Position numbers and translations under genes: made by a program. The notes below the pieces were generated by a model. That model was given only the letters and a program-made list of their open reading frames with translations, did no database searches and was not told the origin of the DNA. A stretch of 13,345 bases of DNA from Rubripirellula sp. (GTDB lineage: Bacteria > Planctomycetota > Planctomycetia > Pirellulales > Pirellulaceae). The stretch covers positions 1 to 13,345 of the forward strand of contig JARFQX010000458.1 of the NCBI GenBank assembly GCA_029287555.1. Direction: 5' to 3'. Each line of letters begins with the position of its first letter. The stretch's first letter is position 1. Below, piece after piece: positions 498 to 13,345 of the stretch.

Positions 498-1376
498 TCA
501 GGCGGAACAACGGGTTCCCGGGCCTACTGCCGGGAAGGGACCGCATGGGATTTCGTGAGCCATCACCTCGCGCGCGGCGACGGGTAGTTGCGGCGCCTGC
601 GAGATGGGCAAGATCGCGTCGTTACCGTGAACGTAATAGGATTCCAGCCGCATTGCCCCGTCATGGTACTCCACCAGCGCCGTGCAGTTTTCGACCCAGT
701 CGCCCGTATTGCAATAAATCATCTCATCCTGATGAAAGAGGTCTGGTGTGTGGATGTGGCCGCAGATGACCCCGCGGCATCCCTGCCGCCGGGCATGTTC
801 GAGTAGCTGCCGCTGAAAATCACTCAGAAAACGGATGAACCTCTTGACGCTACCCTTGATCGAGGCGCAGGTCGCGTAGGGACTGCGTCGAGGGTCTCGC
901 CGCAATCGGCTACAGTACCAATCGAGCGATAACATTGGATCGTAAATGTAGGAGCTTGCGTGGGACAGCCACTGGGCTCGCGTTTCAAACACGTCGAATT
1001 CATCGCCGTGCGTGACGAGGAATCGCCTGCCGTCCAAGGCCTCGAAGACAAATTCATCAGCGATGTGAATATTCAAAGCGGCTACTTGTAACACGCCACG
1101 GACCTCATCCATTCGCAAGAATTGATCGTGGTTGCCAGGCGTGTAGAAGACTTGCGTTCCCCGTTCGATCATTGCAAAGAGATGTCGAAGGATCTGGCTA
1201 TTGATGGCGGGCCAACGAAACGAAGACCGAAGCTTCCAACCGTCGATGAAGTCACCAAGGATGTAGATCTTGTCCGGCTCGATGCCACGAAGGAAGTCCA
1301 ACAGAAGATGGGGCTGAGCGAATCGGCAGCCCAAATGAACGTCGCTTATGAAAAGCGTGCGTGCTTTGCGTTCCAT
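498..1376 (-). CDS. LpxH-family calcineurin-like metallophosphoesterase, PlcP-like (candidate phospholipase C supplying diacylglycerol for lipid remodelling)
   Basis: ORF 498..1385. All metallophosphoesterase motifs are present in order: SDVHLG (DxH), LGDFIDGW (GDxxD), PGNHD (GNHD), THGDEFD (H), CGHIHTP (GHxH). GNHD rather than the GNRD of E. coli LpxH, together with the GT4 gene immediately upstream in the same operon, matches the plcP-agt arrangement. I prefer the ATG at 1376 (MERKARTLFISDVHLG) over the GTG at 1385. 292 aa. Confidence 0.8.
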   Translation of the reverse strand: MERKARTLFISDVHLGCRFAQPHLLLDFLRGIEPDKIYILGDFIDGWKLRSSFRWPAINSQILRHLFAMIERGTQVFYTPGNHDQFLRMDEVRGVLQVAALNIHIADEFVFEALDGRRFLVTHGDEFDVFETRAQWLSHASSYIYDPMLSLDWYCSRLRRDPRRSPYATCASIKGSVKRFIRFLSDFQRQLLEHARRQGCRGVICGHIHTPDLFHQDEMIYCNTGDWVENCTALVEYHDGAMRLESYYVHGNDAILPISQAPQLPVAAREVMAHEIPCGPFPAVGPGTRCSA

Positions 1377-1454
1377 CACAGTCACCCATTATCCTTCTTT
1401 CATCGGCCAACGGTCGGGTTGTTTGCTCAGCCGGTCTGAACCGGAAGCGGAGCG

Positions 1455-2726
1455 TCAGGCTTGGCTCGGCTGAGTCGCCAGCGGCGAGGATGAACTTCGC
1501 CAGCTTCGCTGCAGCCAGGAGGCGCTGCGAAAGGCGAAGACTAAGCTGGATACAGCCAGGGACGAACACCGGGACGCGACGCGACGCTGTTCACGTGCCG
1601 CATCCAATGTTTCCATTGCTTCCTGGTAGCGTCTCCGCACCTCCTCGGTGGAGGCTCGCCACCCACAGCGTTCGACGTGACTCCGCGCGCGAGAACCAAG
1701 CGACCGACGAAGTTCGACGCTACCAAGCAGCTTCGCCAGCGAGGTCTGCGCCGCGTCAACATCTCCAGGACAATAGAGCACGCCGGACTCGCCATCTTGC
1801 ATTAGCGACGGGATTCCACCGGCCGCGGGCGCCAACACCGGTAATCCTGATGCCATCGCTTCCATGACCACATTCCCCATTGTTTCGGTTTCTGATCCGT
1901 ACAAGAACAGATCCGCCGAAGCATATGCCTGCGCAAGCTCCTGTCCTCGCAGGTAGCCGGTGAACGTCGTTTTGCTGCCGGCGAAGCGGCGTTCCAGGCG
2001 GGCGCGATCGGGACCGTCACCCACGATCGCCAGCCTTGCCCCGGGAAACCGCTCGATTACCTTTGCGAGAAAGTCAACGTTCTTTTCAACTGCTAAACGC
2101 GAAACCGTCAGCAACAAGGGCGTATCCGGCTCGCCCGATGTCAGCCGATACCGCATCGACTCGGACTGGCGCTTCGGTTGGAACAGTTGTGTATCGACAG
2201 CGGGTGGCCAGGTCCGAACGCGCTCAAAGCCGCGCTGCTCCAATTCCGCTCGCAAAATGGATGAAACTGTCAGGTTCACGTCGGCACAGTTGTGGTAGCT
2301 TCGAGTCAAATGCCACAGCGGGCGCGACAGCTTGCGAAGCACGGGATACTGTTTGACGAATTCACCGTACAACGTGTGAAAGGAAAAGACTGTCGGAATC
2401 GATATTCTGTGCCGTGCCAGAACGTCATGGCAGCGAAAGCCGAAGGCGAACGGATTCAGGAAATGGATCACATCTGGCGCAAACTCCCGGATTACCTCGA
2501 TAAGTCGCTCCGACGGCACGCCAATCCGATACTCGGGATAGGCGACGCACGGGAAGCTGGGAAACGAAACCGTGCGAATGGATGGGTGTTGGCAATCCTC
2601 GGCGTGGGGGCAAAAGACAACCACCTCATCACCAGCTTCGGAAAGATGTTCCAGCAGTCGCATCGTTCGCATCACGACCCCGTCAATCTTCGGCAGAAAG
2701 ACTTCCGCGATTATCGCGACTCGCAT
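1455..2726 (-). CDS. GT4 (GT-B fold) glycosyltransferase, SqdX/Agt-like; candidate diacylglycerol glycosyltransferase
   Basis: ORF 1455..2750. The N-terminus MRVAIIAEVFLPKIDGVVMRT is the typical SqdX/SQD2-type GT4 start. An EX7E motif sits in GSETETMGNVVMEAMASGLPVL. The ATG at 2726 is preceded by AGAGGAGA with an 8-nt spacer, so I prefer it to the GTG at 2750. 423 aa, with a ~50-aa tail beyond the expected fold. Confidence 0.85.
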   Translation of the reverse strand: MRVAIIAEVFLPKIDGVVMRTMRLLEHLSEAGDEVVVFCPHAEDCQHPSIRTVSFPSFPCVAYPEYRIGVPSERLIEVIREFAPDVIHFLNPFAFGFRCHDVLARHRISIPTVFSFHTLYGEFVKQYPVLRKLSRPLWHLTRSYHNCADVNLTVSSILRAELEQRGFERVRTWPPAVDTQLFQPKRQSESMRYRLTSGEPDTPLLLTVSRLAVEKNVDFLAKVIERFPGARLAIVGDGPDRARLERRFAGSKTTFTGYLRGQELAQAYASADLFLYGSETETMGNVVMEAMASGLPVLAPAAGGIPSLMQDGESGVLYCPGDVDAAQTSLAKLLGSVELRRSLGSRARSHVERCGWRASTEEVRRRYQEAMETLDAAREQRRVASRCSSLAVSSLVFAFRSASWLQRSWRSSSSPLATQPSQA

Positions 2727-2734
2727 GACTTGAT

Positions 2735-2739
2735 CTCCT
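2735..2739 (-). promoter_or_regulatory. Shine-Dalgarno-like AGGAG for the GT4 gene
   Basis: The minus-strand sequence reads gattAGAGGAGAtcaagtcATG. The AGGAG core lies 8 nt upstream of the ATG at 2726. Confidence 0.5.
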
Positions 2740-2846
2740 CTAATCCGCACGTTGGCGCGAGTCGTTCGCCGCCCTGGGGAAGCGTTGAGCGGACGGACGT
2801 GCCATCCAGCAGCCCATCGAAGCTCTGTCAGCAGATGCCGTTTGTC

Positions 2847-3668
2847 TCATCGAGGCTTCCGGGCGACGGCGATGACGATGCTGTGGTGATCCGAGACTGG
2901 AAAAACCAGGGTGTTCAGGAATTGGCGAGTCAACCAGCCTGCCCGCTGGAGCCCCAGTTCTTCGACGAATGGCGTCAGCCAGCCGCCGTGATAGGCAAAC
3001 TCCATGAACCCGTCGAAATGCTCGAACTTGAGTTCTGGCTCGAAGGTCTCGGTTATCTCCGACTCGAATCCCCCATCCTCGAATCGGCGCTTGACTTCCT
3101 GTTCGTCTTCCGGCGTTAGTAGGTTGCCTTCCGCCGAAACGCCCCTTCGGTTGAACAGTGCCTGCAGGACACGAGACTTGGCAATTCTCTGCAGCGCCGG
3201 ATAGCCCCGGCTTGTCCCGCCAACGAACGACCAATAGCCGCCGGGCTCCAAGTGGTCCCAAATTTTGGGTGCCAAAGTCTGCATCGGAACGAATCCGGTT
3301 ACGAAATGCGTGCAGATCATACCGAACGCCTGTCCGGCGAAATGAATTTCAAAATTCGCGGCATCATCGACCGCCGTGGCGATCTCCGGGATACGCTCCC
3401 GGGCGATCTCGACCATCTGTTTAGAAATATCTAGCCCGGAGGGAACGACATCCCGATCGGTCGATTGAATCAATCGCTCTAGGAACAGCCCCGTGCCTAC
3501 ACCAAGATCCAAGACACGGAGTGGTGGCAGGCCCGCTTTGAGAAGGTCGAGATCATCGAGCTGCCGAAGCGACGCTGCGATGGTCCGCTGAATCACGTCC
3601 TGAGGATCAACGTCATAATGCTTCGCAATGACTTCATCGTATTGCCTTTGAATGACTTCCTTGTGCAT
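2847..3668 (-). CDS. class I SAM-dependent methyltransferase (substrate unknown; candidate head-group N- or O-methyltransferase)
   Basis: 273-aa ORF starting at the ATG at 3668. Motif I VLDLGVGTG (3489-3515) has the usual acidic and loop context (LRVLDLGVGTGLFLERL). Later segments fit motifs II/III (IATAVDDAANF, FGMICTHF). It is the first gene of the leftward operon. Confidence 0.85.
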   Translation of the reverse strand: MHKEVIQRQYDEVIAKHYDVDPQDVIQRTIAASLRQLDDLDLLKAGLPPLRVLDLGVGTGLFLERLIQSTDRDVVPSGLDISKQMVEIARERIPEIATAVDDAANFEIHFAGQAFGMICTHFVTGFVPMQTLAPKIWDHLEPGGYWSFVGGTSRGYPALQRIAKSRVLQALFNRRGVSAEGNLLTPEDEQEVKRRFEDGGFESEITETFEPELKFEHFDGFMEFAYHGGWLTPFVEELGLQRAGWLTRQFLNTLVFPVSDHHSIVIAVARKPR

Positions 3669-3864: not shown

Positions 3865-3890
3865 TTGTGACGATTTGATAAATACTGACA
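3865..3890. repeat. three 10-bp-phased yTGnnA hexamers in the most AT-rich patch of the divergent control region
   Basis: TTGTGA (3865-3870), TTGATA (3875-3880) and CTGACA (3885-3890). The opposite strand reads TGTCAG-tatt-TATCAA-atcg-TCACAA. The site lies about 190-200 bp from both divergent start codons. Its function is unproven. Confidence 0.25.
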
Positions 3891-3954
3891 CGTTTTCCCG
3901 GATGTGAATTGCGAGCAAGAGGGAAGCTGATAAAGTTCTCGGCGCCGTGGACAA

Positions 3955-3980
3955 GGCAAACTTGCATTGGCAAGTTCGCC
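3955..3980. promoter_or_regulatory. 26-bp imperfect inverted repeat (candidate operator or 5'-UTR hairpin) upstream of the GMC gene
   Basis: GGCAAACTTGC-ATTG-GCAAGTTCGCC. 10 of 11 arm positions are complementary (one A/C mismatch) around a 4-nt centre. It lies ~100 bp upstream of the ATG at 4079. Confidence 0.35.
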
Positions 3981-4078
3981 TCGCCTGATCGAAAGGAATG
4001 TTATGTGTGCGAAGCGGTTTGTTGCCGCTTTGGGAATGCTGAAGGCGTCGTAACAATCGGCCAACAGGACGTGTCCCG

Positions 4079-5662
4079 ATGTCGAGTCTCTTACAACCTG
4101 GTGAGAAACGGGCGAACGATTCAAACACGCGTGGCGGCGAACCGTTCACGGCCCTCCCGCCCCCACCCGATTCCGAATGTCGCTTTGACGTGATTGTGAT
4201 TGGAAGCGGGGCTGGTGGCGCGGTGTTCGCGTGGAAGTGCGCGATGTCAGGCAAACACGTGTTATTGATCGAACGGGCCAGATCGCTTGGTTCACTTCCG
4301 CGTGACGAACTGTCCACACTCGTCGAAAAGCGTCCCTACGATAATCGCACCATCGATTTAAACGGGAAGAGCCAGCGTCTTTACATCGGCGGCACCATCG
4401 GGGGCAGCACGTCGCTCTACGGAGCGGCGTTGCTGAGACCAAGTCTCGATGACTTTCATCCGGGCCGCTACTACAGCCATCGCTTGCCCAAGTATCGATG
4501 GGACTGGCCGATCGACTACGAAGCACTGGCTTCGCATTATGACCGGGCGGAGCAACTTTTCGGTGTAACAAACCCGGCTAGCGAGGACTTTGACCCACTT
4601 CAGTCTCCCGGAACGCAGCTCAACGGCGAGCCGATTCCCCTCGCTCCGATCAATCGCCACCTGGTTGCTTCGAGTCGTTCCGCAGGATGGAAGCCGTTTC
4701 GCTTGCCGCTGGCGATCAACGGAAAGACATGTCTTCGCTGCGCCGCCTGTGCTGGCTACGTCTGCCCGAACGGTTCTCGCCGAAGCGGCGCGGATCTGTT
4801 GCGAGACGCAACCGCGGGCGATGGTTCGCTGCATCTCATCGAGGGCACCGAAACTTTGGAGTTTCGCCGGGGACTCGATGGGGCAGTCACATCGGTACTT
4901 ACACATGGCGAGAGCGATGGAGTGCGCCGGGAGTTTTATGCCAAGCGTTACGTCCTGGCCGCCGGCGCACTCGGTTCCGCCGCGGTCTTGTTGCGATCCG
5001 GGATTGGTGGTCAACACGTCGGGCGCAACTACATGTTCCACTATTCGCCCATTGCTGTCGGGCTATTTCCCTCGCCGACCGAGGCTGATCGCACCTTCGT
5101 GAAGCAGATTGGTTTCGCGGACCATTACTTCGGCACACCCGATTGCCGCGAAAAGATCGGCATCATTCAGTCGCTTCCGGCTCCGGGATTGATGATGATG
5201 CGGAAGAACGGCTCGCGTGGAGTCCCTCGAGCCATCCTCAAGGTTCTCCGCCGGCGCATGCTACCGTTGCTGGGCATCGTCGAGGACCTTCCCGATCCAC
5301 GTAATCGCATCGTCATTGACGGCAGGCGAATAGCTTTGCGTCATCGTTTCAGCGAGTTTGACCGCGCGCGCGGGCGAGCCCTTGCGAAACAAATGGTGTG
5401 TATCTTGAAGCAAGCCGGAGCCGTCCATTGCCTCGTCCGCCAGAGCACTTCCAGCGACCACGTCGCTCACCAATGCGGATCCCTTCCCATGGCCGCGAAG
5501 CGAGAACACGGTGTCGTTAGCCGCGATTGCCGCGTCTATGGGGCGCCAAATCTGTTTGTCGTCGACGGCAGTGTTCTACCCATGTCACTTGGGGTCGGCC
5601 CCGCGCTGACAATCATGGCCAATAGCTTGCGAGTCGCCGATCAGGTTGTCTCGGAATGTTGA
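4079..5662 (+). CDS. GMC-family FAD-dependent oxidoreductase (gluconate-2-dehydrogenase flavoprotein-like subgroup)
   Basis: 527 aa. The N-terminal FAD Rossmann motif is FDVIVIGSGAGGAVFA...LLIERA. The GMC C-terminal signature is HQCGSLPM...NLFVVDGSVLPMSLGVGPALTIMANSLRVADQV. An internal Cys-rich motif CLRCAACAGYVC is present. Confidence 0.9.
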   Translation: MSSLLQPGEKRANDSNTRGGEPFTALPPPPDSECRFDVIVIGSGAGGAVFAWKCAMSGKHVLLIERARSLGSLPRDELSTLVEKRPYDNRTIDLNGKSQRLYIGGTIGGSTSLYGAALLRPSLDDFHPGRYYSHRLPKYRWDWPIDYEALASHYDRAEQLFGVTNPASEDFDPLQSPGTQLNGEPIPLAPINRHLVASSRSAGWKPFRLPLAINGKTCLRCAACAGYVCPNGSRRSGADLLRDATAGDGSLHLIEGTETLEFRRGLDGAVTSVLTHGESDGVRREFYAKRYVLAAGALGSAAVLLRSGIGGQHVGRNYMFHYSPIAVGLFPSPTEADRTFVKQIGFADHYFGTPDCREKIGIIQSLPAPGLMMMRKNGSRGVPRAILKVLRRRMLPLLGIVEDLPDPRNRIVIDGRRIALRHRFSEFDRARGRALAKQMVCILKQAGAVHCLVRQSTSSDHVAHQCGSLPMAAKREHGVVSRDCRVYGAPNLFVVDGSVLPMSLGVGPALTIMANSLRVADQVVSEC

Positions 5663-5687
5663 TTCTCCAACTTCGAAAGTCGGGTGT

Positions 5688-6605
5688 ATGGTGCGAGTCA
5701 AGATTGAAGAACTCTCGCAGGCGAAACAAATTCACGGCGGGCTGGTTCAGCTTTGCGCCGCCTCCCTTGGTGTTCGCCTCGCCCGCGTTCCGATTCCAAC
5801 GCGGCGGCTGCGACGACACGTGTTTAGCCGGATCTACGGCGATAAATATCCCGCCCTTTGCGAAGCCGATTTGGAGAAGCCGCTGCACGACTACCGCTCC
5901 ATCAACGAACTCTTCACTCGCGGGATCCGCGCGGACCGTCGCCCCATGCCCGAAGGCTCCAATCAACTAATCTGTCCCTGCGATTGCACCGTCCAGGACT
6001 CCGGTACCTTGGAACGATCGCTCGTTCTAAACGCCAAAGGAATCTCCTATTCCCTCGCGTCCCTGTTAGCGACTGACCAAGTTCAATCGTTTTCGGGCGG
6101 GCAGTACGCCGTGCTGTTTCTTTCCCCGAGTGATTGTCACCGTGTGTTTTGTCCCACCGAATCGGAACTTGTCGAGATCACGCACGTCCCCGGCCGCCGT
6201 CTGCTGGTGCACCCACCCTATCAACGGAAAGAATATCCGGTCTTCACGCTCAACGAACGTGTGGTGATGCAACTGCGCAGTCCGCGCGGATCGATCGCCT
6301 TGGTGATGATTGCGGGCTGGGGTGTAGGCAACATCACGTATCGGTTTGCCTACGGACCGCGAAAGCGCTCCTATCGGTTGTCTCGCTACGTTTGCGAGCC
6401 GTCGGAACGATTCCAGCGTGGTGACTGGCTGGCGACCTTTGAATTGGGTTCGACCGTGATTCTGGCCATCGAGCCAACGGTGTGCGACTCGCTGGGCCTC
6501 GTTCCGGGCAAGACGCTTCGCTATGGAGAGTCACTGGCCCCGCTCCGATCGTCCTCATCAAAGCCTGTGTCCACGAACACGTTGACATCGAAGGGGAAGT
6601 CATGA
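5688..6605 (+). CDS. psd: phosphatidylserine decarboxylase-family pyruvoyl proenzyme
   Basis: Collinear with E. coli Psd: YRSINELFTRGIRADRRP (cf. YRTFNEFFVRPLR..RP), ICPCDCTV (cf. PADG), FLSPSDCHRVFCP (cf. YLSPRDYHRVHMP), FTLNERVV, and the self-cleavage motif FELGSTVIL (LGST at 6444-6455). I prefer the ATG at 5688 to the TTG at 5646, which would overlap the GMC stop. 305 aa. Confidence 0.85.
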   Translation: MVRVKIEELSQAKQIHGGLVQLCAASLGVRLARVPIPTRRLRRHVFSRIYGDKYPALCEADLEKPLHDYRSINELFTRGIRADRRPMPEGSNQLICPCDCTVQDSGTLERSLVLNAKGISYSLASLLATDQVQSFSGGQYAVLFLSPSDCHRVFCPTESELVEITHVPGRRLLVHPPYQRKEYPVFTLNERVVMQLRSPRGSIALVMIAGWGVGNITYRFAYGPRKRSYRLSRYVCEPSERFQRGDWLATFELGSTVILAIEPTVCDSLGLVPGKTLRYGESLAPLRSSSSKPVSTNTLTSKGKS

Positions 6606-8266
6606 TGGAAGCAATGAAACAGATTATCATCGGACCACGTTCGCCGCTGGCTCTTCGCTACGCCAAGTACCTAAGCGAAGTCGGCGGTCGGACCGTCACA
6701 CTTGTGGCATTGAGTCCGCTACCGAAGACCGAAGACGGGGATCGCCCATTCCATCTCTCTGCCGAACAGTTTGCAAGTGACACATCGCGGGCTGGCGATG
6801 TTTGCCTTGTTCTCTTCGACGTCCGCCATTGCTGCGACGACGAGACACTCATGCAAGGTGTCGAAGAACACCTGCGGAGGAATCCCGGTGCGCTGCTGTT
6901 TCTGATCAGCAGTGCATCGATTCACAGCGGCGATCTCCGCTGCTCCCGGGCGGAAACAAAGCTTCACGATCGGTTTGGACCGCTTGCGTCGCGGCTCGTT
7001 ACCCTACGCGTGACCCACCAGGTTGGTCCCGAGACGCTGGCATCCGTGATTGACGCGGAAACTCACTCCGCCCGTGGCCGCCGATCGCGCACCTTCACGT
7101 TGCTGGAACCGACCGTCGGCGTCCGAAGCCCGAACCCGCTTGAGGCATTGTCAAGCGACCCGAATGACATCGAGACAACCCGCTCGCGCGGGACCTCCGG
7201 TGCGAGCGGATTCCGATCACTCGGCAAGCTGCTCCCGCGTCCGGGCGCATCGATGCCGGAGACTCTGCGTCCGAACAGCGTCAGCGAATTGCTGACGCTT
7301 TACCATCCCTACAGCTACCAGCACGTGCAGATCGCCGGGTGCAACACGGGCGTCAAGCATTTTGGCTGGGAGTTTCCCGGCAAGACCCTGATCCAAACAA
7401 TCCGAACTGCCAGACGGGCCCGCGTGCGTGGCGACCGACTTGATGTTGACGCCGGACTGACGCTGAAACTGGCAATCGAGTGCCTGCGCCGAGTCGAGAA
7501 GGAGTTCTACGTTGTCCCCAACTACTCCTACATCAGCATGGGGACCATCTTCTTTGTTCCGGTACATGGCTCCGGCAGCGATGTGTCCACGCTGGGCGAA
7601 ACGATCGAAAAGGCACTGCTGTATCTGCCGGACGAGGACCGATTCCTGCGAATCAAACGAGGGGACCCCAATTTTGGTCGCTACATCTACCGGCCTGAAT
7701 CGAAAGCGCTTGTTTTACGCTTGACCTTTCGCATTCGTGATCAAACGCGTTATTTCGTCAAACAATCGACACACGCCACGCCGCGGGCGCGTGAAATCGT
7801 CGATCACTTCAGCGATCCGGAAGCCGTGAACGTTGAAATCCGCAAGTCGAAGGCAGCAGATGATTGTGTCACGATTCGAAAGTACTACGAGCATGACCAG
7901 ATTGCTTCCGGAAAACCGCTCGAGCTTCCCAAGGACTCGCTCGGCCGGCTCTGGGATCGATTGGAGGAAACACCGGTCGTGTCTCACCTCTTCCACGAGT
8001 ACGTACGTCGATTCGGCTATCACGTCGAATTGTTCCTCAGCAAAACCCAATTCGATCGGTTTTGGAAGGCTCATCGAGAGCTTCCGCTCAGGAAGATTCA
8101 ACTGCGTCGCATGAAGCAGGATGGACTGCCTCATTCGCCATGCAGCGACTGCGACCGAATCTCGGCCGACCTGTTCATGAAGCGATCCGACAAGGACCGC
8201 TTCTTAGCCTTCATCGAGCACCACTTGCCAGACGTCCACTTCAATCCCGGGAAGCACAGCCGATGA
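6602..8266 (+). CDS. two-domain protein: degenerate SDR/Rossmann-like N-domain + PCMH-type FAD-oxidase-like (FAD_binding_4 / ALO-DprE1-like) C-domain
   Basis: The start ATG at 6602 overlaps the psd stop (ATGA). N-domain: KQIIIGPRSPLALRYAKYLSEVGGRTVTLVA (beta1-loop-helix pattern), LISSASIHSG...CSRAETK (at the SDR S...YxxxK position, with Y replaced), LVTLRVTHQVGPE. A low-complexity R/S/P/T linker follows (~7064-7261). C-domain: VQIAGCNTGVKHFG (at the GGGHS position), LDVDAGLTLKLAIECL, SMGTIFFVPVHGSGSDVSTLGETI (cf. tvGGaiat.ahGsg..yG), and a C-terminal VHFNPGKH (cf. HWGK of ALO/GULO). This is a motif-level call only. 554 aa. Confidence 0.55.
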   Translation: MMEAMKQIIIGPRSPLALRYAKYLSEVGGRTVTLVALSPLPKTEDGDRPFHLSAEQFASDTSRAGDVCLVLFDVRHCCDDETLMQGVEEHLRRNPGALLFLISSASIHSGDLRCSRAETKLHDRFGPLASRLVTLRVTHQVGPETLASVIDAETHSARGRRSRTFTLLEPTVGVRSPNPLEALSSDPNDIETTRSRGTSGASGFRSLGKLLPRPGASMPETLRPNSVSELLTLYHPYSYQHVQIAGCNTGVKHFGWEFPGKTLIQTIRTARRARVRGDRLDVDAGLTLKLAIECLRRVEKEFYVVPNYSYISMGTIFFVPVHGSGSDVSTLGETIEKALLYLPDEDRFLRIKRGDPNFGRYIYRPESKALVLRLTFRIRDQTRYFVKQSTHATPRAREIVDHFSDPEAVNVEIRKSKAADDCVTIRKYYEHDQIASGKPLELPKDSLGRLWDRLEETPVVSHLFHEYVRRFGYHVELFLSKTQFDRFWKAHRELPLRKIQLRRMKQDGLPHSPCSDCDRISADLFMKRSDKDRFLAFIEHHLPDVHFNPGKHSR

Positions 8267-10419
8267 GGTCATCCACTGTCGCAGATGTCCGAATCGAGGA
8301 CGCGTTCGGTCAGCTGATGGACCGGCAGCTACCCAATCTGTTTCGCTTATACCTCAATCCGATCGTGACGCAGGCGTGTCTTTGCCTCTCGCGGATCGCC
8401 TCCGCAAGCAAGGATGGAGTGCGGAGCAGTGGCGGAACGTATCAGATTTTTCTTGCCAACGGCCACGACGAAGCGTTGAGTGGTGCCATAAAACTGACCC
8501 GATACATCCAGAACCTGCGCCGTCGAGATGCCAAGGTACTCATTCGGGGACCGCAACACCGTATCGCACACTTCGCCTCCACGGTCCTTCCGAGCGGACG
8601 CCGCATATGCTTTGTGCCCGAGGTGATGGAGTGCTTCGACGGCGAGGAAAGCACCAGTGCACCGGATCCCGGGAGTTTCGGCGTTGTCGTTACTTTTGCC
8701 AGCCTCGGGCAGCTAGACAATCAACTTGGCGATAATCAGCTGACGATCTTATCCGTCGGCTTGAGGGATGTCTTCAATGCCGGTGGAGATCTCCCCCGCG
8801 GATGGTCGCCCATCGCTTGTCCCGACGTGATTGTATTCGATGCATCGTGGGTCCACCACGACGTGCCGTTCTCTGCATTTGCAGCCAAGTCCACGCTGCT
8901 TCGACATTGGCGAAAGAGAACCATGTCGATGTTTCACTCAACGACCTTTCAACCGAACACCATTGCCAGTCTTCACTTATTGAATTGCCTTCGTCGCGAT
9001 GCGTGGGCGTTCATGACATCGATGAACCCGAAGCTGGAGCGGATTGAACACGATCGCAGCTATCGATGCAAGGTTTTCAGTTCACTCTACAGCCCTTCGC
9101 TCGCGCGACTCATTCGAACCACCGGCTTCGATCAATCGGAACCGACTGCGACGGGACACAAGATTCGAATCCGAGACAAGACGGTGTTTGACGCCGTCGG
9201 CGGCGTTGCCTGCAGCATCCGAGGACACAACCCGCCATCGTATTTGGACGAGATCAACGCCGTCGAGTCCGCGAATTTGCGTGGACGCCTGCAGTCAAAG
9301 CTTGAACGGCTTGTCGGGCTCGGCCATTTCATCCCAGCCGGGAGCGGCGCCGCGGCGGTCGAAACTGCTCTCAAGGTCGGGCTGGTGAGCCAGACCAGGG
9401 GTGACTATGTGTTGGCGCTGCGAGGCGGATTTGGGGGCAAGACCCTGTTCGCCTTGACTGGTACTGATAGCGACCGGTTAAAGACAAACTTGCAACCTCT
9501 CTACCCCAAAGTGATCTTCGTCGACCCGTATGCGGCCGACAGTCTGGATGCCTTGCGACACGCAATGGATCACTTTCGAGTCGGCATCGTCCAAATGGAA
9601 TTGATCCAGGGAGTCGGTGGCGTCCGCACCATTCCCCGTGCAGTCGTCGATTATGTCCAACAGCGGCGAGAGCGAGACGGCTACTGGTTGTTTGTCGATG
9701 AAGTACAAACCGGCATGTATCGAACTGGAGAGATCACGCTTTCAAAAAGGATGGGTCTTCGCGCCGACTTTTTGACGCTCGGAAAGGGCACCTCCGACAT
9801 GATGTTTCCCTCCGCGCTGGCACTGCATTCGGACGAGGTGGAAAATCGATTGCGTGAACTCGATACCGACCTGGACACGGTGCTCAGGCAACGCCATGAG
9901 CACGCGTGGGGCTACAAGACGATTCTGAACACGCTGCAGTATTGTGAGAAGCGAGAGATCCGAGAACAGGTGTTTGCCGCCGAACAGCTGTTCAGAGAGC
10001 GTTTGCACGGCAAGATCGATTGCCTGCCGAACGTGCGGGAGATTCGAGTGTTTGGCCTGTTGATCGGCATTGAATTGAAGGCAAAACAACCGCTAGCTCG
10101 CTTTGATTCATCTCTCGCCTCACTCTACCTGCTGGAGATGCTTCGTCACCCCCAATTCCCGCTGCTCGCAGGTTTCTGTCAAAACGAACGAAATGTGCTG
10201 AAGTTAACCCCGCCCTTGACGGTCGGCGCGGAGGAGATTCACCACATCTGCGACACCGTCATCGATTCTCTCAGCCGGCCCCTATCGAAGCTTGCGCTGT
10301 CAGGCGTCGGCGCGAAGTTGCGTTGCCACCTGCCCATTCAGGTCCTACGGGCTCGAGCACAACCGATCCTCAAAGTGTCAGCCGCGAACCCATCATCGCC
10401 ACACGATTCTGCGGCGTGA
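8263..10419 (+). CDS. tandem class-III (fold type I) aminotransferase: degenerate N-terminal copy + intact PLP-dependent C-terminal copy
   Basis: The start ATG at 8263 overlaps the upstream stop (ATGA). C-terminal copy: GHNPPSYLDEI, IPAGSGAAAVETALKVG, LFVDEVQTGMYRTGE, FLTLGKGTSDMMFPSA (Schiff-base Lys codon aag at 9784-9786), VREIRVFGLLIGIEL, LKLTPPLTV. N-terminal copy: LYLNPIVTQ, FLANGHDEALSGAIKLTRY, PDVIVFDASWVHHDVPFSAFA, FHSTTFQPNTIA. 718 aa. Confidence 0.8.
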   Translation: MRSSTVADVRIEDAFGQLMDRQLPNLFRLYLNPIVTQACLCLSRIASASKDGVRSSGGTYQIFLANGHDEALSGAIKLTRYIQNLRRRDAKVLIRGPQHRIAHFASTVLPSGRRICFVPEVMECFDGEESTSAPDPGSFGVVVTFASLGQLDNQLGDNQLTILSVGLRDVFNAGGDLPRGWSPIACPDVIVFDASWVHHDVPFSAFAAKSTLLRHWRKRTMSMFHSTTFQPNTIASLHLLNCLRRDAWAFMTSMNPKLERIEHDRSYRCKVFSSLYSPSLARLIRTTGFDQSEPTATGHKIRIRDKTVFDAVGGVACSIRGHNPPSYLDEINAVESANLRGRLQSKLERLVGLGHFIPAGSGAAAVETALKVGLVSQTRGDYVLALRGGFGGKTLFALTGTDSDRLKTNLQPLYPKVIFVDPYAADSLDALRHAMDHFRVGIVQMELIQGVGGVRTIPRAVVDYVQQRRERDGYWLFVDEVQTGMYRTGEITLSKRMGLRADFLTLGKGTSDMMFPSALALHSDEVENRLRELDTDLDTVLRQRHEHAWGYKTILNTLQYCEKREIREQVFAAEQLFRERLHGKIDCLPNVREIRVFGLLIGIELKAKQPLARFDSSLASLYLLEMLRHPQFPLLAGFCQNERNVLKLTPPLTVGAEEIHHICDTVIDSLSRPLSKLALSGVGAKLRCHLPIQVLRARAQPILKVSAANPSSPHDSAA

Positions 10420-10449: not shown

Positions 10450-10935
10450 ATGGTCCACCCCCTGATGATCGATTTCCAGGAATTGTACCGCCGACACCTC
10501 TGTCGGCATTCTCAGTTTGGTCTCAACGTCTTGCACCTGGTCGCCGTTGTCGGGATCTACCTTTCGCTCTATCGCATCGTATTCTCGCTGCCGGGCTCGA
10601 TGTGGATTCTTGGAGCCGGATTGGCACTCTACCTTGGAATCCTATTGGCAAAGCTGCCCTTTCGGTTGTGGCTGATTAACACGGTCATGGTGCTGTTGTT
10701 GCTGTCCCTTGCCGCAGCTGCTCCAGCATTTCCCATCTGGGGATACGCCCTGCTGATCGTAGTCCTGCACTGGTTCCAGAACTGGTCGCACCGAATCTAC
10801 ACAACGGCGTTCGACATGAGCGCCTACAAGGAAAAATATCCAAAGGGCCTGCCGTTGTTTTTGACCTTATCGTTGTTCGAGCTGCCGATCTTGTTGAACT
10901 ATCTGGCGTTCGACCGAAGAAGCTGGGCATCGTGA
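10450..10935 (+). CDS. small polytopic membrane protein, possibly DUF962/Mpo1-like
   Basis: 161 aa with 4-5 hydrophobic spans (VLHLVAVVGIYLSLY, WILGAGLALYLGILLA, LINTVMVLLLLSLAAAAPAF, IWGYALLIVVL, LPLFLTLSLFELPILLNYLAF). The His pattern YRRH...NVLH and WFQNWSH resembles yeast Mpo1 (YHHNPKNVLIH and IFQFVGH). The resemblance is judged from memory of that sequence and was not computed. Confidence 0.6.
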   Translation: MVHPLMIDFQELYRRHLCRHSQFGLNVLHLVAVVGIYLSLYRIVFSLPGSMWILGAGLALYLGILLAKLPFRLWLINTVMVLLLLSLAAAAPAFPIWGYALLIVVLHWFQNWSHRIYTTAFDMSAYKEKYPKGLPLFLTLSLFELPILLNYLAFDRRSWAS

Positions 10936-11678
10936 TGCTGATCTCAAAATCCAAGCGAGTTAGAAGGACGGGGCCAGATTTTGTTCCGCAGTCGGATCCG
11001 TTTCGGCCGGTACATATTCGCCCGGCGGTTGAACCCGATCCAGGACGAGCGAGGTTGCGAGCACGTTCTGCTTTAGTGTCCGAGGTCGTCGTCTTGCTGC
11101 ACGGATTTGGCGCGCGTCCACTGATGATGCGAGGGATCGAAAGAAAGCTGCGGCAGAACCGATTCGACGTCATCAACTGGGGTTACGCGAGCACGCGTCA
11201 ATCCATAGCCTTCCACAGCGGGAGGCTGCGGGATGCGCTGGTGGGTTGTCGGCTAGTCGTTGATTACGGGCGTGTTCACCTGGTGGGTTACAGCATGGGC
11301 GCGATCATCGCCCGACACGCGGTTGCATCCCACGCGGACTTTCCTCCGGGTCGAATCGTTTTGTTAGCGGCACCCAACCAGGGAACGCACGTTGCCCGCA
11401 CAGCGGCCCGCGTGATCGGCAGGTTCTGTCCCACGCTCAACGACCTGTCCGACGCACGTTTCAGTACGGCGAACGTGATTCACACTCCCCGGGACCGGGA
11501 AATAGGAGTCATCGCCGCGAAGAACGATTGGGTGGTGCCACTATCACACACCCACCTGGCCGACCAACGAGACCACATCGTCGTGCCCGGCGATCACTTA
11601 CGACTACCACTGCTGCGAGAAACCAGTCGCCAAGTCGTAAAATTTCTGCAGAACGGCTCGTTTTCTAGGGCAAGTTGA
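10932..11678 (+). CDS. alpha/beta-fold serine hydrolase (lipase/esterase-like)
   Basis: Oxyanion region VVVLLHGFG, nucleophile elbow HLVGYSMGAII (GxSxG), later AAKNDWVVP (Asp) and VPGDHLRLP (His). The GTG at 10932 / ATG at 10935 overlaps the upstream TGA (10933-10935). A shorter start at the GTG at 11076 (MSEVVVLLHGFG) is also possible, because the first ~48 aa are a basic, Pro-rich extension with no signal-peptide character. Confidence 0.8.
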   Translation: MMLISKSKRVRRTGPDFVPQSDPFRPVHIRPAVEPDPGRARLRARSALVSEVVVLLHGFGARPLMMRGIERKLRQNRFDVINWGYASTRQSIAFHSGRLRDALVGCRLVVDYGRVHLVGYSMGAIIARHAVASHADFPPGRIVLLAAPNQGTHVARTAARVIGRFCPTLNDLSDARFSTANVIHTPRDREIGVIAAKNDWVVPLSHTHLADQRDHIVVPGDHLRLPLLRETSRQVVKFLQNGSFSRAS

Positions 11679-11992
11679 AACGGTTTTCCAACTGGGTCGG
11701 CCACTCCGGTGCGCAGGATTGTTCGGTACTGATCTTCGCACCGATTCACCAAGACACATCGCTCCAATCCGAACTCGCATTTCCTTCTATCCAACTCCGT
11801 GCCTCTGCGAGGCTGTGAGCAGGCTCCTTTCAGTAGCGGCGTGCTCCCTGGATCGTCCGGCATCCTGTTCAATGCGCTATACTCGACGGTAAGAGACTTC
11901 GGAAACGGTCAACTCTTCCGCGGATCTTGTCACCGACCGGGTGAGCGGACCGCGACGCTGGAAAGATCAATTCACTGTTGGAACCACTGAAG

Positions 11993-13345
11993 ATGGATGC
12001 TGGACTCTTTGTTACGACCGGTGCTCAGCGACAGGCTCGGCTTTGGATCGTCGTTTTTCTTTCTCTTGTTGCCCTGATACCGACGGGCTGCAGTCGCAAG
12101 CATGAGGTCGACGTCATCTCACCGCAGGAAAGTGGGGTCGTCATATCGGAGATGGAGAGTACTCTGTCGGAAAACGACTGGGGCGGCTGGCGTGGGCCGA
12201 GTGGCGACGGGATCGCCGTGCCGCAAGAGATTGTCACGACGTGGGATGAGACCACCAACGTTCTTTGGCGCGCCGACGTACCGGGACGGGGACACAGTTC
12301 TCCCATCGTGGTTGGTGATTCGGTCTTTCTGGCAACCGCGATTCAGGCCGAGGAAACGCAGTGCGTGATCGCCTACAACCGTGTCGATGGGACGGAACGG
12401 TGGCGCACCGTTCTTCATCGAGGTGGTTTTCCGTCGTCTCGAGAAGTCCATCAGAAGGCCACCAACGCCAACGGCACGATCGCCAGTGATGGACAGCGAC
12501 TATACATCGCGATGCTCAACTCCAAGGCGATCATCGCCTCCGCCCTTGATCTGGACGGTAATCTTTTGTGGCAACAGGAGGTCGGCAAATTCGCTTCCAA
12601 ATTCGGCTACGCACCCTCACCCGTGATCTACAAATCACTCGTTATCTTTGCGGCCGACAATAGCGGGGGTGGGTACCTCGCGGCGGTCGACGGCGCCAGC
12701 GGCAAGGTTGCCTGGCGCGTCTCGCGCGGCCAAGTCGACAGCTACGCCAGCCCGGCGATCGCCAACGTGGGCGGTCGTGACCAGTTGCTGATCAGCGGAT
12801 GCGATGCCGTGACGAGCTACGATCCCGCTACCGGCGAAGAGCTTTGGAGGACGCCCTGCATTGCCGACTCAACGTGCGGAACGATTGTGACCACGACGGA
12901 TCGAATCCTTGCCAGCGGCGGTTTTCCGGAAATGGAAACGGTTTGCCTGTCTGCCGAAGGCGACAAGATCTGGTCCAATTCCGAACAGGTTTATGAACCG
13001 TCGATGATTGTTGTCGGGAACTATGTCGTGGGAGTCAATGATGATGGGATCGCGACGTGCTGGGAGATTGAATCAGGAGAGCGTCAATGGAAGAAACGTT
13101 TGGGCGGAAACTTCAGTGCCTCCCCGGTGTTGGTCGATGACATGGTGATCGTACCGAACCTTGAAGGATCGACATTCGTTTTTCATGCGAGCGAAGAATT
13201 TGACGAGATTGCCGAGAACCGCCTCGGCGACGATGCCTACGCGAGCCCGGCGGTTGCAGGAGGACAAATTTTTCTTCGCATCGGGGTCGGAAAAGGGACC
13301 GACAGGCGCGAGCAACTCGTTTGCATCGGCGAGGTAGCCTCCTGA
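11993..13345 (+). CDS. PQQ-like (BamB-type) beta-propeller repeat lipoprotein
   Basis: From the ATG at 11993 the protein starts MDAGLFVTTGAQRQARLWIVVFLSLVALIPTGCSR, a signal peptide plus a lipobox-like TGC (Cys codon at 12089-12091). Propeller blades recur: NVLWRADVPGRGHSSPIVVGDSVFLAT, GTERWRT, GNLLWQQEVG, GKVAWRV, GEELWRT, GERQWKKRLGGNFSASPVLVD, ASPAVAGGQIFLR. The stop lies at 13343-13345. The TTG at 11978 is a less likely start. Confidence 0.85.
   Translation: MDAGLFVTTGAQRQARLWIVVFLSLVALIPTGCSRKHEVDVISPQESGVVISEMESTLSENDWGGWRGPSGDGIAVPQEIVTTWDETTNVLWRADVPGRGHSSPIVVGDSVFLATAIQAEETQCVIAYNRVDGTERWRTVLHRGGFPSSREVHQKATNANGTIASDGQRLYIAMLNSKAIIASALDLDGNLLWQQEVGKFASKFGYAPSPVIYKSLVIFAADNSGGGYLAAVDGASGKVAWRVSRGQVDSYASPAIANVGGRDQLLISGCDAVTSYDPATGEELWRTPCIADSTCGTIVTTTDRILASGGFPEMETVCLSAEGDKIWSNSEQVYEPSMIVVGNYVVGVNDDGIATCWEIESGERQWKKRLGGNFSASPVLVDDMVIVPNLEGSTFVFHASEEFDEIAENRLGDDAYASPAVAGGQIFLRIGVGKGTDRREQLVCIGEVAS

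Follow-up and report, generated by a model that had tools for sequence, protein, structure and literature searches.

A conserved planctomycete gene cluster that may build a nitrogen-bearing, phosphorus-free membrane-lipid head group

We analysed the entire 13.3-kb contig JARFQX010000458.1 (13,345 nucleotides, hereafter the window) of a metagenome-assembled, 74% complete Rubripirellula sp. genome of the Planctomycetota (GenBank assembly GCA_029287555.1), in which a GMC-family dehydrogenase and a class-III aminotransferase are encoded in the same operon. The reading that we favour, at a probability of about one half, is that these enzymes catalyse two of the steps in a conserved pathway encoded by seven to nine genes and probably induced by phosphate starvation, a pathway that gives rise to a nitrogen-bearing, phosphorus-free membrane-lipid head group. 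The observations beneath it are gene content, synteny, family and fold assignments and a common promoter motif, and from these we infer the substrate, the order of steps, the aminated position and the product.

A listing of open reading frames (ORFs) combined with Pfam and NCBIfam scans resolved the window into two divergent operons:

498–1385, minus strand: calcineurin-like metallophosphoesterase, LpxH/PlcP-like, a candidate phospholipase C for diacylglycerol supply (PF00149, 52 bits)
1455–2750, minus strand: GT4-family glycosyltransferase, a candidate lipid glycosyltransferase (Glycos_transf_1 and Glyco_transf_4)
2847–3668, minus strand: class-I S-adenosylmethionine (SAM) methyltransferase, probably an amine N-methyltransferase (Methyltransf_25/11 and orthologue profile)
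3866–3908, minus strand: Pho-box-like direct repeats of the divergent promoter, weak in the window (one TTCACA and degenerate units)
4079–5662, plus strand: GMC-family flavin adenine dinucleotide (FAD) dehydrogenase with a four-cysteine Fe–S motif, CxxCxxCxxxxCP, at residues 218–229 (GMC_oxred_N/C)
5688–6605, plus strand: type-I phosphatidylserine decarboxylase (PSD)-like pyruvoyl proenzyme with an LGST cleavage site (PF02666, TIGR00163)
6599–8266, plus strand: fusion protein of 555 residues, predicted by its fold to join a Rossmann-like N-domain (approximately 1–170) to a VAO/PCMH-type flavoenzyme domain (approximately 220–555)
8263–10419, plus strand: tandem class-III aminotransferase of 718 residues, with a degenerate N-terminal copy (approximately 1–245) and a catalytic C-domain carrying the pyridoxal phosphate (PLP) lysine K508 (Aminotran_3)
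10450–10935, plus strand: polytopic membrane protein of 161 residues, remotely DUF962/Mpo1-like, with four invariant histidines (sub-threshold PF06127)
10932–11678, plus strand: alpha/beta hydrolase, lipase/esterase-like, a lineage-specific addition (Abhydrolase_1/6)

The initial annotation had placed the GMC and aminotransferase genes in one tightly coupled operon divergent from a glycosyltransferase, and both points hold: the two genes are co-directional and joined through short gaps and overlaps, and the methyltransferase, the GT4 enzyme and the LpxH/PlcP-like esterase lie on the minus strand. A 25-nt gap separates the GMC stop (5662) from the PSD-like ATG (5688) and a 30-nt gap the aminotransferase stop (10419) from the DUF962-like ATG (10450). 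At the remaining three of the five junctions on the plus strand, start and stop overlap (as ATGA in two cases and as GTGA in the other), namely between the PSD-like stop (6605) and the fusion ATG (6599), the fusion stop (8266) and the aminotransferase ATG (8263), and the DUF962-like stop (10935) and the hydrolase GTG (10932). Within the ORF at 8062–10419 (plus strand), ATG 8263 is the likely aminotransferase start, given its ATGA overlap with the upstream stop and homologues of 690–730 residues. The operon continues beyond the aminotransferase to 11678.

A one-genome-per-species scan with the aminotransferase returned 103 relatives, the best 80 of which were used as species-level loci; the window proteins were mapped onto these loci and all their ORFs were clustered. 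The order GMC, PSD-like, fusion, aminotransferase, DUF962-like is collinear in about 65–80 species-level genomes, belonging to Planctomycetota and a few Cyanobacteria. Among the 80 loci the aminotransferase is present in 79, the fusion in 76, the DUF962-like gene in 73, the PSD-like gene in 68 and the GMC gene in 65, followed by the methyltransferase (62), the GT4 gene (50) and the close type of metallophosphoesterase (38); missing core genes mostly coincide with contig ends. The linkage of the five core genes is far beyond chance, and their collinearity across several planctomycete orders and Cyanobacteria counts in favour of a lipid pathway. The initial annotation had passed over the two genes that separate the GMC–aminotransferase pair and the extension of the operon to 11678; the two do share an operon, but they are not self-contained, given that the PSD-like and fusion genes between them and the DUF962-like gene after them are equally conserved.

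Carriers include Singulisphaera acidiphila DSM 18658, Singulisphaera sp. GP187, Aquisphaera insulae, Tepidisphaerales, Fuerstiella and many Planctomycetaceae, together with the cyanobacteria Hyella patelloides and Mastigocoleus and two further cyanobacterial bins. Full-length aminotransferase homologues with 40–50% identity number in the hundreds in metagenomes, their named sources being Pirellulales, Gemmataceae or Planctomycetota. The gene set is nevertheless rare and patchy: an aminotransferase search found an orthologue in 0 of 40 same-genus or same-order relatives and, among 400 genomes sampled from the phylum, in one, the matches otherwise being ordinary class-III paralogues.

The company that the core keeps points to lipids. 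Two Gemmataceae without the methyltransferase and GT4 genes near the core have them side by side elsewhere in the genome, and the two travel as a pair, beside the core or at another site in the same genome. The metallophosphoesterase orthologue adjoins the GT4 gene in 38 loci; in about 15 Planctomycetaceae loci a gene of the PAP2 lipid-phosphatase family and a different alpha/beta hydrolase are inserted between them, and in Isosphaeraceae the methyltransferase and a second type of metallophosphoesterase follow the core. On a Mastigocoleus contig of approximately 30 kb the order is GT4, PSD-like, fusion, aminotransferase, methyltransferase, DUF962-like, and this block is surrounded by a fatty-acyl-AMP ligase (FAAL), a KS-AT-ACP polyketide synthase (PKS), a TE-ACP-alpha-oxoamine synthase, a short-chain reductase, two desaturase-family genes, an MFS transporter, a HAD phosphatase and a second DUF962 copy. 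No GMC orthologue was found in this cluster, whose contig ends shortly after it, and only a fragment in that incomplete genome; the fusion gene is kept. Orthologues of the ACP-oxoamine synthase (57–59% identity) also occur, on other contigs, in the two other cyanobacterial carriers searched.

The core is therefore seen with a GT4 enzyme in two very different lipid-anchor contexts, and this is the strongest reason to think that it modifies a head group of glycosyl or polyol type and not the acyl part. Judged by their families, the accessory genes are all lipid-related, comprising the metallophosphoesterase, PAP2 and alpha/beta hydrolase genes and, in Mastigocoleus, the HAD, MFS, desaturase, FAAL, PKS and ACP-oxoamine synthase genes. 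The link to lipids proposed in the initial annotation is in this respect supported, the conserved pathway being tied to a GT4 gene and to families of lipid-phosphate and lipid-ester hydrolases.

Phosphate enters through the divergent promoter. We compared the intergenic regions of 35 loci with divergent neighbouring methyltransferase and GMC genes and found hexamers such as TTCACA and TTAACA to be enriched, with pairs of a TT[ACT]ACA unit outscoring shuffled sequence. At a spacing of 11 bp, 12 of the 35 regions reach a score of at least 11/12, as against 0–3 regions at each of the other spacings between 6 and 18 bp. The exact element TT[ACT]ACA-N5-TT[ACT]ACA occurs at 21 sites in five carrier genomes compared with 9 for a reversed control; three of these sites are cluster promoters, three lie 15–128 nt upstream of PstS-family genes in three genomes (TIGR02136, 280–285 bits) and one adjoins a phytase-like gene. 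The genome from which the window comes has a PstS-like gene with TTCAC repeats, spaced at 11 bp, in front of it. An 11-bp direct repeat is, as sequence signatures go, that of a PhoB/OmpR-type Pho box, and phosphate control has good support in the family as a whole, whereas the copy in the window only hints at it.

Two further features were observed in connection with these promoters. The planctomycete Pho-box candidate in the form TT[AC]ACA-N5-TT[AC]ACA is also found upstream of two NagX-like genes of a membrane acyltransferase family, and the divergent promoter region of the window contains an inverted repeat, GCAAACTTGC-ATTG-GCAAGTTCGC, at 3953–3982, approximately 100 bp 5′ of the GMC start.

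The two flavoenzymes of the core fall in sugar- or polyol-oxidizing groups by sequence and predicted fold. The GMC enzyme matches PF00732 with 55.8 bits (cut-off 23) and PF05199 with 66.7 bits (cut-off 24.6) and carries the FAD motif VIVIGSGAGG. Across 20 orthologues its active-site H464 in AHQCG is invariant and aligns with the His of NHITGS in 8hdd, and C218, C221, C224 and C229 are likewise invariant, in a segment that aligns with the Cys-rich TCCGNNNCMPICP of 8hdd/6a2u, which in those enzymes binds the 3Fe–4S cluster. The closest solved structures are the alpha subunit of the Burkholderia FAD-glucose dehydrogenase (8hdd/6a2u, E = 7e-24) and the large subunit of fructose dehydrogenase. The initial annotation had likened the protein to the NeoQ-type paromamine 6′-oxidase, a likeness to NeoQ/LivQ-type enzymes that is not supported: 7dve, a NeoQ-type 6‴-hydroxyparomomycin oxidase, aligns only with residues 465–526, some 60 C-terminal residues, at E = 1.2e-5. 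Characterized members of the Fe–S FAD dehydrogenase group oxidize secondary or anomeric hydroxyls, and for this reason oxidation at C6 is not favoured. The protein begins at its FAD motif and has no export signal, and genes for the small Tat hitch-hiker and cytochrome c subunits were found neither in the window nor among the recurrent families of the 80 loci; on these grounds it looks like a cytoplasmic Fe–S dehydrogenase.

The fusion flavoprotein is visible mainly through its predicted structure. The window protein has no Pfam match (one orthologue has a precomputed ‘weak’ PF01565 hit), phmmer against PDB sequences returned nothing meaningful, and profile matches to the PDB are weak (E = 1e-3 to 0.4, including 3pm9 and GLDH). 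Its AlphaFold model (pLDDT 84) is more informative: Foldseek places residues approximately 220–555 with alditol oxidase 2vft (E = 8e-14), L-galactonolactone dehydrogenase and DprE1 (E up to 1e-11; TM by target 0.5–0.6). An invariant motif, G-x-N-x-G-x-x-H-x-G, stands at the start of the VAO-type domain (residues 247–256). This second flavoenzyme could equally supply the carbonyl that is to be aminated; the Mastigocoleus locus, the one without a GMC gene in its cluster, keeps the fusion. We do not claim three oxidations from three redox domains, the N-domain of the fusion having no conserved cofactor motif.

Amination would fall to the aminotransferase, which matches Aminotran_3 (PF00202, 114 bits) over the C-terminal 400 residues of the ORF, with an invariant D479-E-V-Q-T-G484 and, 24 residues later, an invariant lysine, K508. 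The modelled C-domain is closest to PigE (4ppm, Z = 39.4), the putrescine aminotransferase YgjG and ArgD, which are tied at Z = 38–39; these structures, nearest to the model, are omega-transaminases that aminate aldehydes or amines. Residues 1–245 (positions 8263–9000), compared as a profile with solved structures, match ArgD (2eh6, E = 7e-6) and PigE (E = 1e-3), and FDES stands in place of the lysine motif, so that by sequence the N-terminal extension reads as a degenerate copy of a class-III PLP-binding domain. A profile–profile comparison of the N- and C-terminal halves returned only an artefact of overlapping cut points. Class-III aminotransferases are normally homodimers, and the chain may for that reason be a built-in pseudo-dimer with one active site.

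Directly after the aminotransferase gene, in 73 of the 80 loci, comes that of the DUF962-like membrane protein, an obligatory partner of the core. PF06127 is its top family in 10 of 20 orthologues, with a best E value of 0.016 and all scores under the 24-bit cut-off, and H16, H20, H29 and H114 are invariant in a pattern compatible with metal binding, the DUF962/Mpo1-like family being one of Fe(II) dioxygenases.

The PSD-like enzyme does most to shape the pathway. It scores 150 bits on PF02666 and 141 bits on TIGR00163 (cut-off 111.75), its translation contains ELGSTV, and its closest solved relative is the E. coli PSD 7cnw (E = 3e-21, aligned from residue 51 of the 7cnw chain onward), compared with only E = 1e-3 for the soluble tryptophan decarboxylase of PsiD type. 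Two usual motifs are altered, to PCDC and DCHRVF, and the protein shares only 26% identity with the PSD from a same-genus genome in which the cluster is missing. No other PF02666 gene was found in S. acidiphila, Singulisphaera sp. GP187, A. insulae or a Lacipirellulaceae genome; a second PSD-family copy is present in two other carriers. We set aside the possibility that it is the housekeeping PSD, in view of that 26% identity, the second PSD in some carriers and its occurrence in Cyanobacteria and in a carrier with phosphatidylethanolamine (PE) missing from its reported major lipids.

That carrier is S. acidiphila, whose reported major lipid classes are trimethylornithine lipid (TMOL), phosphatidylcholine (PC) and phosphatidylglycerol (PG), as well as phosphatidic acid (PA), with PE not among them and several spots unidentified (PMC12493201). 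Its 9.6-Mb genome encodes PgsA and a Pcs-like protein that scores 106–143 bits on five phosphatidylcholine-synthase models, all under cut-off; among its CDP-alcohol transferases no PssA-like member was recognized, a search that did not extend to PLD-type PssA. With a single PF02666 gene found, no PssA recognized and PE missing from the reported major lipids, the substrate would have to be made elsewhere, plausibly by the neighbouring aminotransferase, and most likely the PSD-like enzyme acts on an amino-acid head group made within the pathway and not on bulk phosphatidylserine (PS).

The minus-strand genes complete the set. A profile of 20 methyltransferase orthologues matches phosphoethanolamine N-methyltransferases, one bacterial PE N-methyltransferase and amino-sugar N,N-dimethyltransferases, with the alignments lying mostly in the SAM-binding core, and the protein is probably an amine N-methyltransferase. 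The best NCBIfam models for the GT4 enzyme are GlcNAc-PG synthase (132 bits) and MGlcDAG synthase (93 bits), with weak BshA and MshA matches and no equivalog cut-off reached; it is a candidate lipid glycosyltransferase with diacylglycerol as putative acceptor. LpxH models match the phosphoesterase with 46–48 bits, far under their cut-offs.

Put together, the genes would support the following route. A phosphoesterase (PlcP-like here; PAP2 or HAD in other lineages) would free a lipid acceptor, which the GT4 enzyme would glycosylate. The GMC enzyme and the alditol-oxidase/DprE1-like domain would then oxidize hydroxyls of the sugar or polyol to a carbonyl, possibly on to a carboxyl, and the tandem aminotransferase would add an amino group. 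The PSD-like pyruvoyl enzyme would remove the carboxylate adjacent to the amine and the methyltransferase would N-methylate the product, giving an ethanolamine- or choline-like, cationic or zwitterionic surrogate of PE or PC on a phosphorus-free lipid. A more specific version, in which all of this chemistry takes place on the lipid, from a sugar or polyol terminus through a 2-oxo acid and an alpha-amino acid to PSD-type decarboxylation and N-methylation, possibly yielding a quaternary-ammonium phosphorus-free glycolipid, we advance only tentatively, as an outcome that may well not hold. In that version the product would be a new class of phosphate-sparing membrane lipid, and the PSD-like protein the first of its family to act on a non-phospholipid. 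Pyruvoyl enzymes of the PSD type form a Schiff base with a free alpha-amine and require a free alpha-amino acid.

Several points weigh against this route. Class-III aminotransferases usually yield omega-amines from aldehydes rather than alpha-amino acids, which fits poorly with a pyruvoyl decarboxylase. An ordinary hexopyranosyl-diacylglycerol offers no site for an amine alpha to a carboxylate, so that the scheme depends on an unusual head group, such as a furanosyl or uronic sugar, a group of glycerol or glycerate type, or a higher sugar. The GT4 enzyme is not orthologous everywhere, identity falling to 23–35% in Cyanobacteria, and in Isosphaeraceae no GT4 gene lies near the core, the best genome-wide match (33–38% identity) being located elsewhere. 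The N-domain of the fusion is poorly conserved and has no conserved nucleotide-binding or glycine motif, and FAD binding by its C-domain is predicted from the model. As to the promoter, the repeat unit came out of k-mers that are enriched in those 35 regions themselves, leaving the spacing and the pstS sites as the independent tests, and the window's own intergenic region has one perfect TTCACA (3903–3908, minus strand) and three degenerate units at a 10-bp spacing (3866–3891), with a score of 10/12.

Of the other explanations, the one proposed in the initial annotation has the GMC enzyme oxidize the 6-CH2OH of a hexosyl-diacylglycerol and the aminotransferase convert the product to a 6-amino-6-deoxyhexosyl-diacylglycerol, with the remaining genes peripheral. 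Its general logic, a lipid-borne hydroxyl turned into a carbonyl and then an amine, is reasonable: the GMC and class-III aminotransferase genes share an operon beside GT4 and PlcP-like esterase genes, the structures closest to the aminotransferase aminate aldehydes or terminal amines, and a 6-amino-6-deoxyglucosyl glycerolipid, avrainvilloside, has reportedly been obtained from a green alga. But it is incomplete, using two of five invariant genes: the PSD-like, fusion and DUF962-like genes, equally invariant and placed between or after the pair, are given no role. The GMC enzyme, moreover, resembles Fe–S FAD-glucose dehydrogenases (7e-24) far more than 7dve (approximately 60 residues, E = 1e-5), and the Mastigocoleus cluster, on a contig that ends just after it, has no GMC gene. 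We regard 6-amination as unlikely. The annotation's alternative, ArnA/ArnB-like chemistry on glucuronosyl-diacylglycerol, in which C4 would be oxidized, C6 lost as CO2 and an aminopentosyl lipid formed by transamination, fares worse and strikes us as very improbable indeed. Oxidoreductases, a decarboxylase-family protein and an aminotransferase are all present, and Agt-type GT4 enzymes of other organisms can make glucuronosyl-diacylglycerol; yet the decarboxylase is of the pyruvoyl PSD type with LGST and not a beta-keto acid decarboxylase, and so unfit for ArnA-type chemistry, in which a 4-keto-uronate would lose CO2 unaided. No extended short-chain dehydrogenase/reductase domain of ArnA type was detected, the fusion N-domain being some 170 residues without the glycine motif, and ArnB is a DegT-type, not a class-III, aminotransferase. 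Both schemes fall short for the same reason, in that neither uses the invariant pyruvoyl decarboxylase.

That enzyme and the methyltransferase instead recall phospholipid synthesis, and a PssA-independent route to PE and PC can be drawn in which the terminal diol of PG is oxidized to a hydroxypyruvate-type intermediate, aminated to PS, which decarboxylation would turn into PE and methylation in turn into PC. In its favour, the PSD-like protein exceeds the PSD equivalog cut-off, the methyltransferase profile shows a likeness to PE and phosphoethanolamine N-methyltransferases, phosphatidylglycerophosphate phosphatases, too, belong to the PAP2 and HAD families, and S. acidiphila has PC, with PE unreported among its major classes, no other PSD found and no PssA recognized. 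A Pho-box-type promoter in common with pstS, however, argues against making extra phospholipid under phosphate limitation, and the Pcs-like gene can account for the PC of S. acidiphila. Some carriers have a second PSD gene, Cyanobacteria, for which neither PE nor PC synthesis is known, carry the core inside a FAAL/PKS/GT4 lipid cluster, and the tight coupling of methyltransferase and GT4 genes is left unexplained; there is little chance, in our view, that this route is correct. A soluble product, an N-methylated amino-polyol or amino-sugar serving as compatible solute or secondary metabolite with the lipid genes as mere neighbours, is likewise doubtful. Compatible solutes of the glycoside type are likewise classically made by a GT4 enzyme and a phosphatase, in line with the weak BshA/MshA matches; all relatives of the flavoenzymes act on soluble sugars or polyols, and the core is patchy and rare (1/400 phylum genomes, 0/40 relatives). 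Against this, the PSD-like enzyme stands far nearer to E. coli PSD, which acts on lipid, than to the soluble enzymes of PsiD type, the core includes an invariant polytopic membrane protein, and the accessory genes include PAP2, lipase-like hydrolases, desaturases, FAAL/PKS and MFS.

The window also holds features outside the conserved set. Orthologues of the alpha/beta hydrolase that ends the operon are confined to approximately six close Pirellulales loci among the 80. Beyond it, a PQQ_2/BamB-like beta-propeller gene with a lipoprotein-type N-terminus (…LIPTGCS…) at 11978–13345 is truncated by the contig end and is common only to the window and its closest relative. In the ENA contig of that relative, whose proteins are 79–95% identical, the cluster is called as many short fragments, with the GMC, PSD-like, fusion and GT4 genes each split, which suggests a frameshift-rich long-read assembly or decay.

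The cluster joins what looks like a PlcP/GT4 lipid-renovation module to five more conserved enzymes, a combination without a described product. Should the favoured reading hold, it would reveal a new class of nitrogen-bearing, phosphorus-free lipids in Planctomycetota and some Cyanobacteria, extend the substrate range of PSD-family pyruvoyl enzymes, and give Fe–S GMC dehydrogenases a cytoplasmic role. Some of the lipid spots left unidentified in S. acidiphila might be explained as well. For this species, whose strain DSM 18658 carries the cluster at approximately 5.127–5.149 Mb of NC_019892, a gene-deletion mutant has already been described (PMC12493201), and the reading can thus be put directly to the test in a planctomycete that is in culture.

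All the parts are members of known enzyme families, and what they would achieve is similar to lipid renovation as already described. The literature searched contained no paper on this cluster and no description of the gene combination, of an Fe–S GMC dehydrogenase lacking partner subunits, of the tandem aminotransferase or of a PSD-family enzyme that works outside phospholipid synthesis. In 2-deoxystreptamine aminoglycoside pathways, a NeoQ-type GMC oxidase and a NeoB/NeoN-type PLP aminotransferase convert a sugar 6′-CH2OH into 6′-CH2NH2. The likeness lies in a GMC flavoenzyme and a class-III PLP aminotransferase encoded together, and the same progression from hydroxyl through carbonyl to amine on a sugar is plausible here. 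The planctomycete GMC enzyme, in contrast, has four invariant Fe–S cysteines and its nearest relatives among FAD-glucose and fructose dehydrogenases, the aminotransferase is a tandem with a dead N-terminal copy, the pair is split by an equally conserved PSD-like decarboxylase and a second flavoenzyme, and the context is a lipid and not an aminocyclitol. The FAD-glucose and fructose dehydrogenase complexes have the same GMC fold and a Cys-rich Fe–S segment at the same place, but they are three-subunit periplasmic assemblies, whereas here no small or cytochrome c subunit was found in the window or the recurrent families of its relatives and the enzyme is predicted to be cytoplasmic. With alditol oxidase, L-galactonolactone dehydrogenase and DprE1 the fusion shares the fold of residues approximately 220–555 and, like DprE1, may act on a lipid-linked sugar; it differs in a shorter domain (approximately 335 residues compared with approximately 415), in sequence similarity near the limit of detection and in its extra Rossmann-like domain. 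The Psd/PmtA pathway offers a type-I PSD proenzyme with LGST and a methyltransferase of PE/phosphoethanolamine type, from which the present system departs in a PSD-like protein only 26% identical to the same-genus PSD, with altered motifs, in carriers without recognizable PssA and in Cyanobacteria.

Phosphate-starved bacteria replace phospholipids by glycolipids, betaine lipids or ornithine lipids, through routes that are short and already known. In the PlcP–Agt renovation of Sinorhizobium, Agrobacterium, SAR11 and Pseudomonas, an LpxH-like metallophosphoesterase adjoins a GT4 enzyme as it does here, and the orthologous clusters have a Pho-box-type element in common with pstS, weak in the window; the described systems end at glucosyl- or glucuronosyl-diacylglycerol, whereas this one adds a methyltransferase and the five-gene core. 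The likely functional analogue is the BtaA/BtaB system for diacylglyceryl-trimethylhomoserine (DGTS), in which a Pho-regulated, phosphorus-free, N-methylated head group replaces PC or PE. The chemistry would be entirely different: the planctomycete cluster has no BtaA-like SAM 3-amino-3-carboxypropyl transferase, and its nitrogen would arrive by transamination.

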